DNA from: a virus
Taxonomy: Duplodnaviria; Caudoviricetes
Strand: one strand, 5' to 3'
Virus record (IMG/VR): IMGVR_UViG_3300037424_000564
Span: 128,001 to 192,000 of that record
DNA length: 64,000 nt
Numbering within the stretch: position 1 is the stretch's first letter; every line of letters starts with the position of its first letter. The position numbers and the translations under genes are program-made. Of the stretch, positions 5,286 to 62,310 are shown one piece after another. The notes beneath the pieces were generated by a model, which saw only the letters and a list, made by a program, of their open reading frames with translations, did no database searches and was not told the DNA's origin.

Positions 5286-5598
5286 TGTTAGCTCCTAGTT
5301 CTAGACAAATATTCATATATGTCTTAATGGTTTCCATATCATGTTGACCCATAATAGTTCTGGTTGATTCTGCTAAAGATGGAATACATTTCACAGAAAA
5401 ACAAATACCATCTTTAGAAATCATATCAACAGAAATCAGCCCATCCATTTTTTCTTTAGCAGATTTCATCATAATTCCCTTTTTTATTGATTTGAGGTTA
5501 TTTGGTGCAGGACAACTACCACAATTACATCTAAAAAATTGAGTTGATTTATCAGTGAAGTATCCACATTCATAACATTCTGGTTTGATATTTCTCAT
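5278..5598 (-). CDS. Hypothetical protein with Cys-rich N-terminus
   Basis: 106-aa ORF, CYEC...CNCGSC. Confidence 0.55.
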   Translation of the reverse strand: MRNIKPECYECGYFTDKSTQFFRCNCGSCPAPNNLKSIKKGIMMKSAKEKMDGLISVDMISKDGICFSVKCIPSLAESTRTIMGQHDMETIKTYMNICLELGANND

Positions 5599-6401
5599 AA
5601 TGAATCCTTTAATTTATGTGATTCTTCATATTGATACCAAGCATTGAAAATTTTACTAACATCATTATCATAAAATCCTGATGAATTGATGCAATTAAAT
5701 TCTATAACTTTGAGTTCATCATCAACCAGAGCCAAATCCATACAAACACAAGGACTTGGCAACCATTTATCAGCAAACTTCTGGGCTTCTGCTAATACAT
5801 CAGGATCTGTTTCTCTTTTAGAGAATAAATTACCACGATACCGATACATACTTCCATCAATAACTTTATGATCAATTATAAAATATCGCCATTCTGCTTG
5901 GATTACTTTTGGTTCAGCAAGCACGATGATCATATCTTCTTCCATTTTATACGTACCAGAAGAACCACAAACCATTGCATCAGTCAACCATAACCAAAGT
6001 TCTTTGGATTCCATCACTGTGCCAGTAAAATGTTTCAAGTCTTTATCAGGTCTTACAAACCACAATTTATCATCTGGACTTGATTGTAGAAACTTTATAG
6101 CATCTTCGACTTGTAGGATATGTTCAGCATTCATCATATCATCACGATTTGATGCCGCAGTTTTGTAACTGAAATTGGTCATATCAAAGTGTAATCCTTT
6201 ATATCCTCTTTGATATGATATAGTAGTTAACGAAGTTGAACCATATGGAATATAATCTACTCCTACCAATTCTTCATTAGCAGTTATTTCATCACTGAAA
6301 GGAATAACACCAACATATAGATTTGGCTTATCCGCAATAGCATAGCTAATTTCGAGTAATGATTGTACATTAATTAGATTGTGCTGAATTAGAAACTTCA
6401 T
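5595..6401 (-). CDS. R2K-clade ATP-grasp protein
   Basis: WFVRP...KHFTG, EWRYFII, CMDLA, VIEFNCINSSGFY. Confidence 0.75.
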   Translation of the reverse strand: MKFLIQHNLINVQSLLEISYAIADKPNLYVGVIPFSDEITANEELVGVDYIPYGSTSLTTISYQRGYKGLHFDMTNFSYKTAASNRDDMMNAEHILQVEDAIKFLQSSPDDKLWFVRPDKDLKHFTGTVMESKELWLWLTDAMVCGSSGTYKMEEDMIIVLAEPKVIQAEWRYFIIDHKVIDGSMYRYRGNLFSKRETDPDVLAEAQKFADKWLPSPCVCMDLALVDDELKVIEFNCINSSGFYDNDVSKIFNAWYQYEESHKLKDSL

Positions 6402-7079: not shown

Positions 7080-7475
7080 TCAATTAAGAAATAACCATCC
7101 CCAATACATTAGAATCAAATGCATCGTATTATCTTGAGCAATATACACGAAAGCTGCAAATGAAGATTTAAGTTCATTTAGATTTGTATTTTTATCAGGT
7201 GTTTTATTGCAATATTCTTTTAAAGTTGAGTTACCTTTTAATTTTGATACCAGATTACCCAGACTATAATGATCAATAAAATAATGACTTAAAAATACAA
7301 GACAAAACCACTCTATATTCATTTCAGTGAATAAACACACAACCAGAGAATAAATAACACAATGAGTAGTACAAGCCAACCAACCACTCCAATCTCGTTT
7401 TGATTTATTTAACGCCATCCAATCATTCTGAAACAAATAATCACCGGCTAAATGTCCTAACAAAAGTGCAAACAT
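7080..7475 (-). CDS. DUF3307 family membrane protein
   Basis: GHLAGDYLFQNDWMA...SHYFIDH...QDNTMHL. Confidence 0.8.
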   Translation of the reverse strand: MFALLLGHLAGDYLFQNDWMALNKSKRDWSGWLACTTHCVIYSLVVCLFTEMNIEWFCLVFLSHYFIDHYSLGNLVSKLKGNSTLKEYCNKTPDKNTNLNELKSSFAAFVYIAQDNTMHLILMYWGWLFLN

Positions 7476-7510
7476 AATTTTATACCTTTATATGTAAATG
7501 GTTAAAATTG

Positions 7511-54650: not shown

Positions 54651-56099
<1,449 letters not shown>

Positions 56100-56151: not shown

Positions 56152-56180
56152 TTGACAACTAAAGCAGAATTACTTATAAT
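56152..56180 (+). promoter_or_regulatory. Consensus sigma70 promoter
   Basis: TTGACA-17 nt-TATAAT. Confidence 0.85.
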
Positions 56181-56570: not shown

Positions 56571-56599
56571 TTGACAATTAAATCAATATCTAGTATATT
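56571..56599 (+). promoter_or_regulatory. Sigma70-type early promoter
   Basis: TTGACA-17 nt-TATATT. Confidence 0.8.
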
Positions 56600-57284: not shown

Positions 57285-57313
57285 TAGACAAATAATTAAT
57301 ATCATATTATGAT
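57285..57313 (+). promoter_or_regulatory. Sigma70-type early promoter
   Basis: TAGACA-17 nt-TATGAT. Confidence 0.75.
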
Positions 57314-57338
57314 TAGATCAACGAATAGGAGATACCAC

Positions 57339-58547
57339 ATGTTTATAGCAAATCACCCCAAATTATATATAGTCGGAGGTTGTGTCAGAGACATGATCAT
57401 GGGTCGAGAGGCTTCTGATGTGGATTATTGTTTCTCCGGTTCTGAATCAGAATTGATGAAATTGTTTCCTAAAGCATATCAGGTTGGTATTTCTTTTCCT
57501 GTGTTCATGGTAAATGGATGTGAAGTTGCATTGACTCGTACTGAAGAATCTAATGGAGATTCCTATGGTGACTTTATTGTTACTAATGTTGGGGTTTCTA
57601 TTGAAGAAGATTTGAATCGTCGTGACTTCACAATGAATCAAATAGCAATTAACACAATGACTCAAGAAGTGATTGATCCTACTGGCGGCAAGAATGATAT
57701 TACTGGTATGATCATTCGTACAACTAATACTAAAGCATTTGAAGAAGATCCTGTTCGTATTTTGAGAGCAATTCGATTTGCAACTACCATGGGATTTGCA
57801 ATTGAAACTGAAACATTCCAAATGATGAAAGAAAATGTTCATCGTTTGGAATTCATCACCAAAGAACGTATTGTGTTGGAATTGGAAAAAATGTGGAAAG
57901 GTGCTAATGTGCCTTCTGTATTTTTTACAATTTTGAGCGAGATTGGTGGATTGAAATTCATTTCTCCTGTGTTTGAAGCAATGGAAAATGTTCCTGCTGG
58001 ACCTTTCAAATACCATGGGGATGATACAGTATTTGATCACACAATGAATGTCATCAATCGAATCAAACAACATAACGGAACGTTCAGTGCATTCATTGCT
58101 GGATTGACTCATGATTTTGGAAAGACTGTGACTCCTGCACATGTATTGCCGGGACATCATGGCCATGAGTTTAATGGGTTGGAATTGGCTAAAGAATTTA
58201 TAACAAATAATCGTTTTGATTCTTACACAAATGAGTTGATCTTGGTTGCTATGAGAAATCATATGCTGGTTCGTGTTTTCAATGAAATGAGAACTATCAC
58301 CAAAGTCAAATTTGTTAAATCTATTCCTAAGCATATGGTGGAAGATTTCAAAGTGATTGTCTTTTCTGATCATGAAAGGTCACAGGAAACTAAAAATTTT
58401 ATTAGTTTCGTTTTTGCAACTGTCAATTCTTTTAGAATGACCAAAGAAGATATCGAACGTGTTAAAAATACAAAAGATAAAAAAGAAGTAGCTATCAGAA
58501 TCATCACTAAACATTTGGCTTCTAAAATTAAGGAGATTGAAGAATGA
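57339..58547 (+). CDS. cca: Class II CCA-adding tRNA nucleotidyltransferase with HD domain
   Basis: YIVGGCVRD, DVDY, DLNRRDFTMN, FEEDPVRILRAIRF, HT...HDFGK; start MFIANH after AGGAG. Confidence 0.93.
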   Translation: MFIANHPKLYIVGGCVRDMIMGREASDVDYCFSGSESELMKLFPKAYQVGISFPVFMVNGCEVALTRTEESNGDSYGDFIVTNVGVSIEEDLNRRDFTMNQIAINTMTQEVIDPTGGKNDITGMIIRTTNTKAFEEDPVRILRAIRFATTMGFAIETETFQMMKENVHRLEFITKERIVLELEKMWKGANVPSVFFTILSEIGGLKFISPVFEAMENVPAGPFKYHGDDTVFDHTMNVINRIKQHNGTFSAFIAGLTHDFGKTVTPAHVLPGHHGHEFNGLELAKEFITNNRFDSYTNELILVAMRNHMLVRVFNEMRTITKVKFVKSIPKHMVEDFKVIVFSDHERSQETKNFISFVFATVNSFRMTKEDIERVKNTKDKKEVAIRIITKHLASKIKEIEE

Positions 58548-58745
58548 TTAATACTGAATCGAAATCATCAAAGTAATTAGAATTATGGATCAAATTACAA
58601 ATACACAATATCGTAATAATAATATATATTTATTATGAGCATCCAGCTTTCGAAAAAGATGAAAAATTAAGACGCAGGGGTCAACGTAAATTTAGAGGAA
58701 GAAATTGGGATTGATTAACAATTACCTTATATTAAGGAATAACTA

Positions 58746-59699
58746 ATGAAAGTATTATATTGTGGTTCATTTGCTCCATTACATAAGGGTCATGAATATG
58801 TTTACAATGCTATTGTTAACAAATTTGGCAAAGAAAATGTATTCTTAGGAATTGGAAAAAATGAAAAAAAGAATACTGATATTGCCCAAATTCTTTATTC
58901 TATTTGTCCGATTACTTCAAATGTAATCGTGTATGAGGGTCTTACTTCTAATATAGTAAAAAAGCATAACTTTGATTATCTTGTTAGAGGTATTAGATGT
59001 TCAGAAGATATGACAGAAGAATCAAAATTAGCATACTGGAATAAAGAATTGTGCGGAGTTGATACTTTGTTTATAGTTACTTCTCCTGAACTTTCTATGA
59101 TATCATCATCCGCACTAAATCTACTAGATGCTTATGATTTTGGGGATGATATCACGAAATTTATCAACAGTGATGTGTATTATAGATATAAAGCAAAGAA
59201 ATCATCATTTGATGTAGTATTCGGTAAATGTTGTTCAGGTAAATCAACCCATATTAAAACGCATTATCAAAATAAAAATATCATTGAAATAGATAAAGTA
59301 TTTTGGAATTATATTAACACTTCTAAACAATTCAAAGATGTTATGGGTACTACATTGAAAACTTTATTTTATAATAAAAATAAAATTGCATTCAATGAAC
59401 ATATGCAAGTTGTGATGTCATATTTTGATTGGGCGGAATTAGAAGAGCAAATTGATTTTATCAAACAGATAAACAATAAAGATACTATTGTTGATTTTCC
59501 CGCAATTGGTTGTTATTGGGATTATATTCCAGTTAAAGTTAGAGCAAGAATGAATTTGATCAAAGTTTACACTAAAGAAGAAAATAGGGCAGTATTTGCC
59601 GGTAATAGAAATGCAAATACTGCCCTAATTGAATGTTCTGATTTAATGTATCAAGATCCTCCATATCACGATCAAGAATTTGAAATAATGAAAGAATAA
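58746..59699 (+). CDS. CoaD/PPAT-like adenylyltransferase fused to a P-loop kinase (CoaE-like)
   Basis: GSFAPLHKGH, LVRGIR, ISSS in N-half; FGKCCSGKST, EID, VDFP in C-half. Confidence 0.75.
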   Translation: MKVLYCGSFAPLHKGHEYVYNAIVNKFGKENVFLGIGKNEKKNTDIAQILYSICPITSNVIVYEGLTSNIVKKHNFDYLVRGIRCSEDMTEESKLAYWNKELCGVDTLFIVTSPELSMISSSALNLLDAYDFGDDITKFINSDVYYRYKAKKSSFDVVFGKCCSGKSTHIKTHYQNKNIIEIDKVFWNYINTSKQFKDVMGTTLKTLFYNKNKIAFNEHMQVVMSYFDWAELEEQIDFIKQINNKDTIVDFPAIGCYWDYIPVKVRARMNLIKVYTKEENRAVFAGNRNANTALIECSDLMYQDPPYHDQEFEIMKE

Positions 59700-59703
59700 T
59701 ATT

Positions 59704-59925
59704 ATGACGATATCTGAATTTTTCGACCCAAGTAAACAATCACATATTACAGCATTTGAATGTTTAATGAATTCTGGTACATGGCCTGTAAATTTTTTAC
59801 CTAATGATATTTGTTTTTCACCAACTTGGCCATATGACGTTACTCAAAAAATGGTAATCTTTTTAATTAAAGAAAATAAAACATTGAAAGAAAAAGTAAG
59901 AATACTTAAGAAATATTATTACTAG
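59704..59925 (+). CDS. Small hypothetical protein
   Basis: 73-aa ORF directly after the CoaD fusion. Confidence 0.55.
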   Translation: MTISEFFDPSKQSHITAFECLMNSGTWPVNFLPNDICFSPTWPYDVTQKMVIFLIKENKTLKEKVRILKKYYY

Positions 59926-60526
59926 CAAACGTGGCAGGTAAATCAAAAACTTCAATTTTATCATTTGGGGCGACTACTTGTTTATCAATAATCATTCTCA
60001 TATTAAAAAGAACAATCATAACTGTATCACTCCATCCAAACGGATGATCTACTGACAAATAATCAATTCCTTTTAACACTAGAAAGTTCCTAAACGCATT
60101 TGTTTGGGAACTTTTTATTGCTTCATAGTTCACCATCATATTAATGAAATTACTAGCTGGAACTTCACCTTTGTCCTTGTACCTAGAAAGAGCCTGAAGT
60201 ATTTCTTTTCTCTTATTTTTTATAATATAATCATCGACAAATTCCAAGATATCAGCTAAAGGAATGGATGCATCATTTGCATCCATTCCTTTTTTGATTG
60301 TTACCATATAAAGCTTGCGACTACCTTTAGAATATTTCTGTGCTGTTTGATAATGAGTTATTAAATAAAGGCCGGGGCCATACTCGAATCTACCTTTTTT
60401 CTGAATTTTGGTTTCATCATAAGCATCATCTAAATTTCCACCATGCCAAAGACTCATTGTATTTTGAGTAGTAGATGGAGATATAATCTTTTTAGCTTCT
60501 GTTATAAATTGTTTGAATGGTTTCAT
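59906..60526 (-). CDS. ADP-ribosyltransferase-like protein with capsid-targeting-like N-terminus
   Basis: LWHGG...YGPGLYL...TAQKYS...GIDY; starts MKPFKQFITE. Confidence 0.6.
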   Translation of the reverse strand: MKPFKQFITEAKKIISPSTTQNTMSLWHGGNLDDAYDETKIQKKGRFEYGPGLYLITHYQTAQKYSKGSRKLYMVTIKKGMDANDASIPLADILEFVDDYIIKNKRKEILQALSRYKDKGEVPASNFINMMVNYEAIKSSQTNAFRNFLVLKGIDYLSVDHPFGWSDTVMIVLFNMRMIIDKQVVAPNDKIEVFDLPATFASNNIS

Positions 60527-62310
60527 AATCTTCTCAGTTTACCTTTTTCAAAAATTAATTTAGATTTACCATCAGTAATAATATCGCCTTCTTCTAAAGA
60601 TTCAAGAATATCTTTACTTAATCCAGATTCTTGAGCTTTTTGTCTAAATCTACTTTCAGATGCTGGTGTTTCTGGAACTGGTGCTTCTGCTCCCGGTTGA
60701 GGTGCTTGTGCGCCTCCTGCTCCCGGTACTTCTTGAAAATCAGGGGGAACTTCACCACCAGCAGCAGGACCACCCCCCATTGGGGCATTGCCAAGAGCGT
60801 CAGCTTCTCCACCACCAAGATCTCCAACAGAACTCCAATATTCAGCAATTTCAACAACTTCTTCATCAGACATTCTTAGAATTTTCTCTTGAATATATTT
60901 TGGTGAAAGAATTCTAGCTTCAGCAGTTGCCAATCCCATAGCATTATTTGCACCATTGACTTTAACATCAATGATTTGTGCTTTTTTAAGCATTGAAATT
61001 TCATTAGAAGATGCGTAAACAAATTTAATTTTCTCTTGAATATCTTTCCAATCGTCTAATGACATTACTTGTCTAGCAATCAAATCTTTTTTAAGTAAGT
61101 CTACAAATAAGTTATTAAATTTTCTTCTTAATTTCTGAATATATTTGAAGAATTTCATTTCATCACGTTCGATATCAATAGTAGGATTGATACTGATTTT
61201 GCTTTCAGCATTTCTTCTACTTTTAGGTACACATAACGAACTATATACTTTATTTACAAAATAATCAACATCTTCGAATGAAGAGAAACTAGTATTGCTC
61301 ATATTCAAAGGTTCTACTCTAGTTCCTTTGCCTTGCGAATTAATAGGAAACCAAAAATCTTCAAGTATAGAAATAGATTTTGCTGCATTATCAACAGTAC
61401 CATTTTCAGTATTGTAAACTTTTTTCTGACGATACTTTGAAATTAAACTTTTCATATACTCTTCAGCTTTAGTTTTTGGTAGATTCCCGGTATCAATATA
61501 GAAAGCACGTTTCTCTGTTGACTTTGTTAATCTATGAATGATAAGAGTATCTTCAAGTAAATAAAGTTGATTGATAGATTTCATTGCTTTTTGAATTGGA
61601 CTGTAGTAATAGTTTTTATCAGGTGAATAAATGCCTGAGTTAATACTAGCAATCTGCTCATCAAAGTAAGTTATTTCAGGGTTTTCTAAATCTTTCATTG
61701 GATTATAAGATGAATGTTTATCAATATACCATCTAACAGTACCATCATGTTCATTTTTATATTTTTGAATATTAAAAGGTGGAAGAAGAATTAATTTCTG
61801 AATACCATCTTTTGGTTTTCTATTATTGTACACAACTTCAAAGTTCAATGTAGAATCTACATACCATTGACGAAAAAGTTCTTCGCCTTTTTCATTAAAA
61901 TCTAATAGATAAATTATCTTGTCAAATGAATCATAAATTCTAGATTTAATATTTTCAGTTAATTCAATATCATCTAGGTTAAGAGTAATAGCAGGATCAA
62001 TTTCATCAAACACAATAGCTTCAGAAGTAATTTCAATTAATGCTTCATCAACTTCTGGAAGTAAAGATGATTCCCTCCATCTACGAATAAAATCACCATG
62101 ATTAATAGGTTGAGCATTACCACCCAAAGCAAAAGAGTTACTATAATTATTAAATGGATCATAAGTAACGTATGGTGTTTCTAATTCTGTTTCTTTTGAA
62201 ATTTGTGAGAAATTTTTATGGCGATCTTGCATTGCTTCTTTTTCAGAATAGAAAGGACGATTCAATTGTTCAGTAAGATCTCCCCATGCTTCTGTAATAT
62301 TTTTAAACAT
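60523..62310 (-). CDS. gp20: Portal protein gp20
   Basis: PEVDEAL.EI..EAIV, FRQWYVD, INQLYLLED.LIIHRL...EKRAFYIDTGNLPKTKAEEYM, ILEDFWFP. Confidence 0.97.
   Translation of the reverse strand: MFKNITEAWGDLTEQLNRPFYSEKEAMQDRHKNFSQISKETELETPYVTYDPFNNYSNSFALGGNAQPINHGDFIRRWRESSLLPEVDEALIEITSEAIVFDEIDPAITLNLDDIELTENIKSRIYDSFDKIIYLLDFNEKGEELFRQWYVDSTLNFEVVYNNRKPKDGIQKLILLPPFNIQKYKNEHDGTVRWYIDKHSSYNPMKDLENPEITYFDEQIASINSGIYSPDKNYYYSPIQKAMKSINQLYLLEDTLIIHRLTKSTEKRAFYIDTGNLPKTKAEEYMKSLISKYRQKKVYNTENGTVDNAAKSISILEDFWFPINSQGKGTRVEPLNMSNTSFSSFEDVDYFVNKVYSSLCVPKSRRNAESKISINPTIDIERDEMKFFKYIQKLRRKFNNLFVDLLKKDLIARQVMSLDDWKDIQEKIKFVYASSNEISMLKKAQIIDVKVNGANNAMGLATAEARILSPKYIQEKILRMSDEEVVEIAEYWSSVGDLGGGEADALGNAPMGGGPAAGGEVPPDFQEVPGAGGAQAPQPGAEAPVPETPASESRFRQKAQESGLSKDILESLEEGDIITDGKSKLIFEKGKLRRL

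Follow-up and report, generated by a model that had tools for sequence, protein, structure and literature searches.

What does a phage gain from a single protein that appears to hold the last two enzymes of coenzyme A (CoA) synthesis? The question is raised by one gene in a 64,000-nt stretch of DNA, hereafter the window, which covers positions 128001-192000 of the 205,056-bp virus record IMGVR_UViG_3300037424_000564 (Duplodnaviria; Caudoviricetes; GC ~30%) from a phage that is T4-like. The gene is an open reading frame (ORF) at 58746-59699 on the + strand, encoding 317 amino acids from an ATG start, with the stop codon inside the span. A preliminary description, made from the sequence alone, had read its product as CoaD, the phosphopantetheine adenylyltransferase (PPAT), fused to a kinase with the layout of CoaE, the dephospho-CoA kinase (DPCK), and had suggested a two-step CoA synthase. 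From sequence comparisons and structural models we predict, on balance, that members of the fusion family likely act as single-chain CoA synthases and draw their phosphopantetheine from the host. The part of the suggestion concerning domain identities, profile comparisons, structure, and catalytic residues held up; the curated score cut-offs for CoaD and CoaE were missed.

Identity of the two domains

The PPAT motifs attributed to the N-terminal half are all present: GSFAPLHKGH (residues 7-16), LVRGIR (79-84), E92...N99..L102, and ISSS (119-122). Residues 3-151 align with positions 2-154 of the 155 in TIGR01510, the CoaD equivalog model, at 72.8 bits, and the half passes the superfamily model PF01467 (CTP_transf_like) with 35.3 bits against a cut-off of 21. 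This is not a chance resemblance, as every one of the 52 full-length fusions in the family described below matches TIGR01510 (best E 2e-33, compared with ~1e-7 for models of nicotinamide mononucleotide adenylyltransferase, NMNAT). A sequence search of the Protein Data Bank (PDB) with the window protein retrieved 35 solved PPATs, down to E 1.7e-11. We then modeled the full-length protein with AlphaFold2 from an input of eight homologues (predicted local distance difference test, pLDDT, 85.5; predicted template modeling score 0.81). Foldseek searches with this model returned PPATs in all of the top 48 rows (best 5e-9). In an exhaustive structural scan with VIA, the N-terminal half aligned with PPAT 4nah at Z 16.2 (root-mean-square deviation 2.6, 147 residues, 27% identity); NadR and NMNAT structures came next at Z 11.8 and below, a gap of more than 4 Z units. 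Comparing the profile of each half separately, as the preliminary description had suggested, bore out its assignments: for the N-terminal half of the family, hhalign scored E. coli CoaD at 142 (99.6%), NadR at 50, and NadD at 41, and the C-terminal half, treated below, reached 87% with E. coli CoaE.

Structural and mutational work on PPAT identified Thr10, His18, Lys42, Leu/Met74, Arg88, Arg91, and Ser128-130 as residues that bind phosphopantetheine or ATP (PMC12784347). On alignment with E. coli CoaD, their counterparts in the window protein are Ser8, His16, Lys42, Thr67, Arg81, Arg84, and Ser120-122, such that the residues forming hydrogen bonds to phosphopantetheine or ATP are kept or conservatively replaced (Thr10 by Ser8). 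Departures from canonical PPAT include His in place of Thr at the first position of the (H/T)xGH signature and Cys6 in place of Pro8, a position that varies across the family. Judged by sequence and model, the N-terminal half is an adenylyltransferase of the PPAT/CoaD lineage.

The C-terminal half was far less accessible to annotation. Searches of Pfam, NCBIfam, PHROGs, and PDB sequences and profiles gave no meaningful match for residues 152-317; the best PDB profile matches were OKP1 and 14-3-3 (E ~0.1), and the C-terminal halves of the family drew from Pfam only weak matches to AAA_33, AAA_18, and SKI. Structure was more informative. Modeled alone with AlphaFold2 (pLDDT 87.2), this half forms a P-loop core sheet with a four-helix insertion between β2 and β3 and a lid helix after β4. 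DPCKs made up 12 of the top 15 rows in a Foldseek search of the PDB (best 4ttp, 4e-5). A wide VIA search, independent of Foldseek, placed DPCKs at ranks 1-7 (Z 10.5-9.3, 147-159 residues), headed by 2f6r (mouse CoA synthase, DPCK domain; Z 10.5) and 1uf9 (Z 10.4) and followed by gluconate kinase (Z 8.6) and adenylate kinase (Z 8.5). A structure search of the ESM Atlas, with its own independent model and a library of predicted structures, returned PF01121 CoaE clusters in 9 of 10 rows at template modeling scores of 0.68-0.75. Profile alignment agreed with these fold searches: hhalign, run in local mode and with a shallow CoaE side (a homologue search with E. coli CoaE had brought in nothing but enterobacterial proteins, all ≥83% identical), gave 87% for E. 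coli CoaE, 34% for GntK, 13% (12.8%) for the NadR kinase, and 0.7% for Adk. The family profile reached 95% with the PF01121-bearing kinase domains of P0262 and P0263, two metagenomic CoaE-CoaD fusions discussed below.

To see which residues are maintained, we turned to the family as a whole. A word-indexed search found seven close relatives, all fusions of 306-323 aa with 41-47% identity to the window protein, and 66 clusters (50% identity) emerged when 1.84 billion representatives were searched exhaustively with a profile of the C-terminal half. About 50 of the 66 are 300-340 aa long, and their kinase spans residues ~150-320; a few others (P0027, P0053, P0055, and P0061) consist of the C-domain alone, beginning at β1, and a search for loci related to P0027 and P0053 retrieved nothing. 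Among 60 members, which share only 20-50% identity, G160, G165, and K166 of the Walker A motif are invariant, and conservation reaches at least 90% at R147, D183, G255, R281, D299, Y302, P305, and D309. The invariant Gly and Lys residues show that the Walker A motif is no chance pattern, and the fold searches and profile alignment substantiate the earlier call of a P-loop kinase with a CoaE-like layout. Mutagenesis of M. tuberculosis CoaE showed that Lys14 binds ATP and that Asp32 is the catalytic base (PMC3019153); the corresponding residues of the window protein are listed in Table 1. The lid is less certain. In a region of low confidence, hhalign pairs Arg288 with E. coli CoaE Arg144 and Phe284 with Arg140, and R288 is invariant within the close subfamily.

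Cysteines are a further feature of the kinase half: two lie within the Walker A motif GKCCSGKS (the family consensus GKSC.GKS is conserved), and Cys297 in an IEC motif is also invariant. They are unusual for P-loop kinases and may point to a link with thiol or redox chemistry. These cysteines, the extreme divergence of the C-terminal half, and a family-specific C-terminal motif that CoaE lacks (IEC.D..Y.DPP..D) would all suit a protein with a single active enzyme, whose other half has lost catalysis and instead regulates or binds a ligand, perhaps as an attached sensor of CoA or a nucleotide. We consider this highly improbable: the Walker A Gly and Lys, Asp183, and Arg281 are invariant or nearly so across 60 members as divergent as these, and all key PPAT residues are conserved as well. 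Conserved catalytic positions in both halves imply purifying selection on both. We predict, from sequence and model, that the C-terminal half is a very divergent DPCK-like domain; the specificity is called as DPCK because several weak rankings agree, with no single strong result behind it.

The proposed reaction and its rivals

In the mechanism that we propose for the CoA synthase, the PPAT-like domain would use ATP to adenylylate host 4′-phosphopantetheine, yielding dephospho-CoA, and the DPCK-like domain would phosphorylate the 3′-hydroxyl of the adenosine ribose to complete CoA. The general base would be Asp183, whereas the ATP phosphates would be held by Lys166 and one lid arginine. Because the phage carries no gene for an earlier step of the CoA pathway, the enzyme would have to rely on the host phosphopantetheine pool. 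With flux running toward CoA, its presumed effect would be to raise or maintain CoA during infection.

A number of observations weigh against this proposal. The N-terminal half, at 72.8 bits, lies below the TIGR01510 equivalog cut-off of 103.3, and neither the window protein nor any of the 60 family members matches PF01121 or TIGR00152, even at permissive E-values. The margin of DPCKs over other small-molecule kinases in the VIA ranking is only 1-2 Z units, and the matches of the C-terminal half in BFVD are mixed. The HxGH and SSxxIR motif variants of the family fit NMNAT/NadD better than PPAT, and at Lys/Arg133-Glu134 of PPAT the window protein carries Asn125-Leu126. The phage genome contains no gene for CoaB, acyl carrier protein, or phosphopantetheinyl transferase and no obvious CoA-consuming pathway; as those three genes are absent, the genome does not make plain what the phage would gain from more CoA. 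Moreover, phage CoaD-like genes are not always accompanied by a kinase: the complete 519-kb phage G003 has a CoaD-like domain fused to a phosphohydrolase domain of HD type (HD-CoaD) and no CoaE at all. Finally, NADAR (PF08719), an ADP-ribose-related enzyme, is the sole recurrent neighbor of the fusion, found no more than 1.5 kb away at 4 of the 10 family loci (in L005, it overlaps the fusion stop codon), which hints at ADP-ribose or NAD chemistry rather than CoA.

Several of these points suggest a second explanation, in which the protein performs the same chemistry, adenylyl transfer and phosphorylation, on another acceptor: a metabolite related to NAD or ADP-ribose or some other adenylated cofactor, in a NadR-like or undescribed salvage or detoxification reaction. 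The NADAR neighbors, the NMNAT-like motif variants, and the missed CoaD and CoaE cut-offs all favor it, as do Tpt1, RtcB, and Nudix genes at other family loci. NadR also shares the architecture of a nucleotidyltransferase followed by a P-loop kinase, and a survey reported that phages encode NadR (with a HIGH nucleotidyltransferase and a P-loop kinase) and that NadV and NadM can accompany it (PMC9503650).

NadR itself, which the preliminary description had named as the alternative that would count against CoA synthesis, fared much more poorly. In hhalign, NadR falls well behind for both halves (N-terminal half, score of 50 vs. 142 for CoaD; C-terminal half, 13% vs. 87% for CoaE). In VIA, NadR structures aligned with residues 1-150 alone, at Z 11.8 and 8.2 vs. 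16.2 for PPAT. A tblastn search with E. coli NadR found 770 phage records (e.g., Enterococcus phages at 45% identity, E 1e-98), none of which is retrieved by the window protein. These NadR homologues make up an abundant and well-annotated phage family of their own, with which the window protein shares only superfamily membership. On these three comparisons, we rejected membership of the fusion in the NadR family. The broader reading, with an acceptor other than CoA precursors, is further opposed by the genome itself: the window phage has no NADAR gene and already encodes, outside the window, a NadV-type nicotinamide phosphoribosyltransferase and an NMNAT-Nudix protein (Table 1), which by sequence are a complete NAD salvage pair. 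With NAD salvage covered by this pair, the fusion gene would be expected to do something else. We regard a different acceptor as unlikely, although it is the main rival of the CoA synthase.

Locus, distribution, and related arrangements

The fusion gene sits in a small island of + strand genes (~56.2-59.9 kb) flanked by structural genes on the - strand, and the GC skew reverses within this island. A perfect σ70 consensus at the head of the island (Table 1) and a second promoter-like site at 56571-56599 that matches 11 of 12 consensus positions came from a consensus scan. The fusion gene is probably transcribed early, from this island amid the late structural genes; this timing is an inference only, because shuffled controls contain as many promoter-like sites as the region does.

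Table 1. Coordinates of the fusion gene, its predicted functional sites, and other genes considered in the analysis. Positions refer to the window unless a locus or record is named.
Feature	Location	Strand	Basis
Whole gene, PPAT-like/DPCK-like fusion	58746..59699	+	ORF listing, full-length homologues, AlphaFold2 model
N-terminal domain, residues 1-151, CoaD-like HIGH-type nucleotidyltransferase	58746..59198	+	TIGR01510, PF01467, PDB, Foldseek, VIA, hhalign
HKGH, residues 13-16, (H/T)xGH nucleotide-binding signature; His16 = PPAT His18	58782..58793	+	Alignment with E. coli CoaD
VRGIR, residues 80-84; Arg81, Arg84 = PPAT Arg88, Arg91	58983..58997	+	Invariant in 8 closest homologues
ISSS, residues 119-122 = PPAT Ile127-Ser130, contacting ATP phosphates	59100..59111	+	Alignment with PPAT; role from PMC12784347
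C-terminal domain, residues 152-317, predicted divergent P-loop kinase with DPCK layout	59199..59696	+	AlphaFold2, Foldseek, VIA, ESM Atlas, hhalign
Walker A/P-loop GKCCSGKS, residues 160-167; Lys166 = CoaE Lys15	59223..59246	+	Alignment to E. coli CoaE
Asp183, directly after β2; = CoaE Asp33 (M. tuberculosis Asp32)	59292..59294	+	Profile alignment
Arg281...Arg288, helix after β4; candidate lid arginines, CoaE Arg140/Arg144 region, register uncertain	59586..59609	+	Family conservation
Ribosome-binding site AAGGA, 7 nt 5′ of ATG	58734..58738	+	Direct sequence reading
σ70 consensus TTGACA-17-TATAAT, island head; candidate early promoter	56152..56180	+	Consensus scan, 12/12
CCA-adding tRNA nucleotidyltransferase with HD domain, full-length, directly upstream of fusion gene	57309-58547	+	PF01743, PF12627, PF01966; phrog_2244 3e-86
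T4-type portal gene	60523-62310	-	PF07230, E 1e-108
DUF3307 small membrane protein, 51 kb from fusion	7107-7478	-	
NadV-type nicotinamide phosphoribosyltransferase	G000 (same phage, outside window) 102423-103169	-	460-aa frame, E 5e-58
NMNAT-Nudix (NadM-type) protein, 346 aa	G000 (same phage, outside window) 108322-109308	-	
NADAR genes beside fusion in four family loci	L002:1573-2130; L005:2085-2618; L007:415-924; L015:4826-5485		

The gene directly upstream raises a third explanation, that the fusion repairs or modifies RNA ends: an end of an RNA or tRNA would be phosphorylated by the kinase half and receive an adenylyl group from the nucleotidyltransferase half, in concert with the neighboring CCA-adding enzyme and its HD domain. 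RtcB and Tpt1 genes at two homologue loci fit this scheme. However, the CCA-adding enzyme is kept in none of the nine other family loci, polynucleotide kinases rank far below DPCKs (4jt2 at Foldseek rank 46; 3zvl at Z 6.9 vs. 10.5), and the N-terminal half is a compact small-molecule PPAT fold without an RNA-binding addition. With the kinase rankings low and the neighbor not conserved, we set RNA repair aside as a weak and very unlikely reading.

Two other neighbors were recorded in passing. Adjoining the portal gene is an ORF for 206 aa (59906-60526, -) whose N-terminus, MKPFKQFITEAKK, resembles the capsid-targeting sequence of T4 internal proteins. Its product has weak matches to ART-PolyVal (PF18760, E 0.039), DUF3990, and a PHROG annotated as internal head protein; by sequence, it is a candidate head-packaged ADP-ribosyltransferase-like protein. 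At the other end of the island, a 482-aa protein (54651-56099, -) combines long (GDK)n collagen triple-helix repeats (PF01391, 6e-36) with a nonrepetitive C-terminal domain and is probably a fiber or whisker protein.

The fusion was found in no cultured-phage record. The contexts of nine homologues are phage-like, and one of them, L001, is syntenic with the window beside a T4-type portal gene. The fusion is a real, conserved, phage-specific, and previously unannotated family. Across its 10 loci, no defense-related neighbor is conserved apart from NADAR.

In IMG/VR loci retrieved via the N-terminal half, we found that phages combine CoaD-like domains with other partners as well. A CoaD-like domain is fused to an uncharacterized HD-type phosphohydrolase in both orders: HD-CoaD in L018 (5392-5985), L024, L028, and L029 and CoaD-HD in L021 (6460-7140) and L036, the huge phage LR756500.1 (2986-4149). 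The HD-type domain, with motifs R.YHN..H, HD..Y, and KNE..S, had no sequence match in Pfam, NCBIfam, or the PDB; the ESM Atlas groups it with “metal-dependent HD superfamily phosphohydrolases” (score 0.95). In L023, a 375-kb jumbo-phage contig, a CoaD-like domain is fused to a CoaE kinase recognized by Pfam (E 1.2e-5) and by the NCBIfam DPCK model (1e-6), with an hhalign value of 93% against E. coli CoaE; in L018, the HD-CoaD gene is followed immediately by an ORF for a canonical CoaE, which overlaps its end. The preliminary description was right that bacteria usually make CoaD and CoaE as two proteins, although metagenomic proteins include rare canonical fusions, with the kinase following CoaD in P0260, P0261, and P0266 and CoaE preceding CoaD in P0262 and P0263. 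None of P0260-P0263, P0266, and the L023 fusion was among the 66 hits of the exhaustive profile search with the C-terminal half. Combinations of CoaD-like domains and CoaE-type kinases have thus arisen several times, as expected if both domains catalyze consecutive steps. A check for complementary distribution found canonical CoaE in 2 of 10 records, most of them fragments, whose CoaD-like gene is not fused to a kinase. We did not count the “coaD” of Microcystis phage MaAM05 (MW495066.1, L035, 32367-40834): the stretch looks like bacterial chromosome, because rplA, rplK, nusG, secE, and tRNA-Trp surround the gene.

A small membrane protein, DUF3307, recurs around these genes. Besides its copy in the window phage, it occurs 1.3 kb downstream of the L002 fusion (5427-5828), is present in the 211-kb relative G011 (137187-137498), abuts a solo CoaD-like gene in L016 (5636-5998), and stands 2-3 kb upstream of solo CoaD-like genes in L025/L026 (3712-4104) and L027 (2560-2976). 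That it transports a precursor is speculation. It figures in a bolder proposal, that the fusion is the core of a phage pathway for “CoA reconstitution” or takeover: a feedback-insensitive synthase would turn host 4′-phosphopantetheine or an imported precursor, perhaps supplied by DUF3307, into CoA, overriding host control or countering an undescribed defense that depletes CoA. In an equally weighted variant, the product would be an adenylated and 3′-phosphorylated metabolite other than CoA, tied to NADAR and ADP-ribose chemistry. This proposal, drawn by analogy with NAD reconstitution pathways, is improbable in our judgment. The idea of the preliminary description that the enzyme might rebuild a cofactor depleted by host defense drew no support from the analysis, and our literature search turned up no publication that describes phage CoaD-CoaE fusions, treats CoA depletion as a defense, or links CoA to phage defense.

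Were the fusion indeed a CoA synthase, phages would carry their own single-chain version of this enzyme, built independently of animal COASY, and CoA would join the short list of central cofactors (NAD+, dNTPs) whose pools phages directly manipulate. Some 66 unannotated protein clusters would receive a name. The protein would also offer a compact two-step enzyme in which to study the transfer of an intermediate between active sites and the possible loss of feedback inhibition of PPAT by CoA, and the recurring links to HD phosphohydrolases, DUF3307, and NADAR would be concrete leads to its partners.

Comparison with known CoA and NAD enzymes

The N-terminal half has the size and fold of bacterial PPAT/CoaD (E. 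coli 1B6T/1QJC, S. aureus 4NAH, M. abscessus 5O06), matches its profile colinearly over the full length, and conserves all of the (H/T)xGH, K42, RGxR, E99/N106, and ISSS positions; unlike bacterial CoaD, it is fused to a kinase. The C-terminal half shares with CoaE/DPCK (1JJV, 1VHT, 4TTP, 1UF9, 2IF2) the P-loop core, the helical acceptor domain between β2 and β3, and the lid after β4. However, identity to CoaE is ~12%, and the phage domain is ~40 residues shorter and lacks the C-terminal helix. Its C-terminal motif and P-loop cysteines are features of its own, and the HP and PLLxE motifs of the Pfam consensus of CoaE are absent.

Fusions of CoaD with CoaE are already known from COASY and the rare metagenomic forms; the novelty lies in a kinase half that every annotation library searched had missed. 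The metagenomic fusions and L023 likewise unite the two final enzymes of CoA synthesis in a single polypeptide, in both domain orders, but their kinase halves are recognized by PF01121, whereas those of the window family are not. Eukaryotic COASY (mouse DPCK domain, PDB ID code 2F6R) has the same order, PPAT then DPCK, and the same two-step chemistry that we propose for the phage protein. The PPAT of COASY is of the eukaryotic/archaeal type, whereas the phage PPAT half is of the bacterial CoaD type, and the phage protein has neither a mitochondrial anchor nor a regulatory N-terminus. The resemblance is, therefore, an analogy through independent fusion and not membership. NadR, in turn, also consists of a HIGH-type nucleotidyltransferase followed by a P-loop kinase, but both halves of the phage fusion are much closer to CoaD and CoaE.

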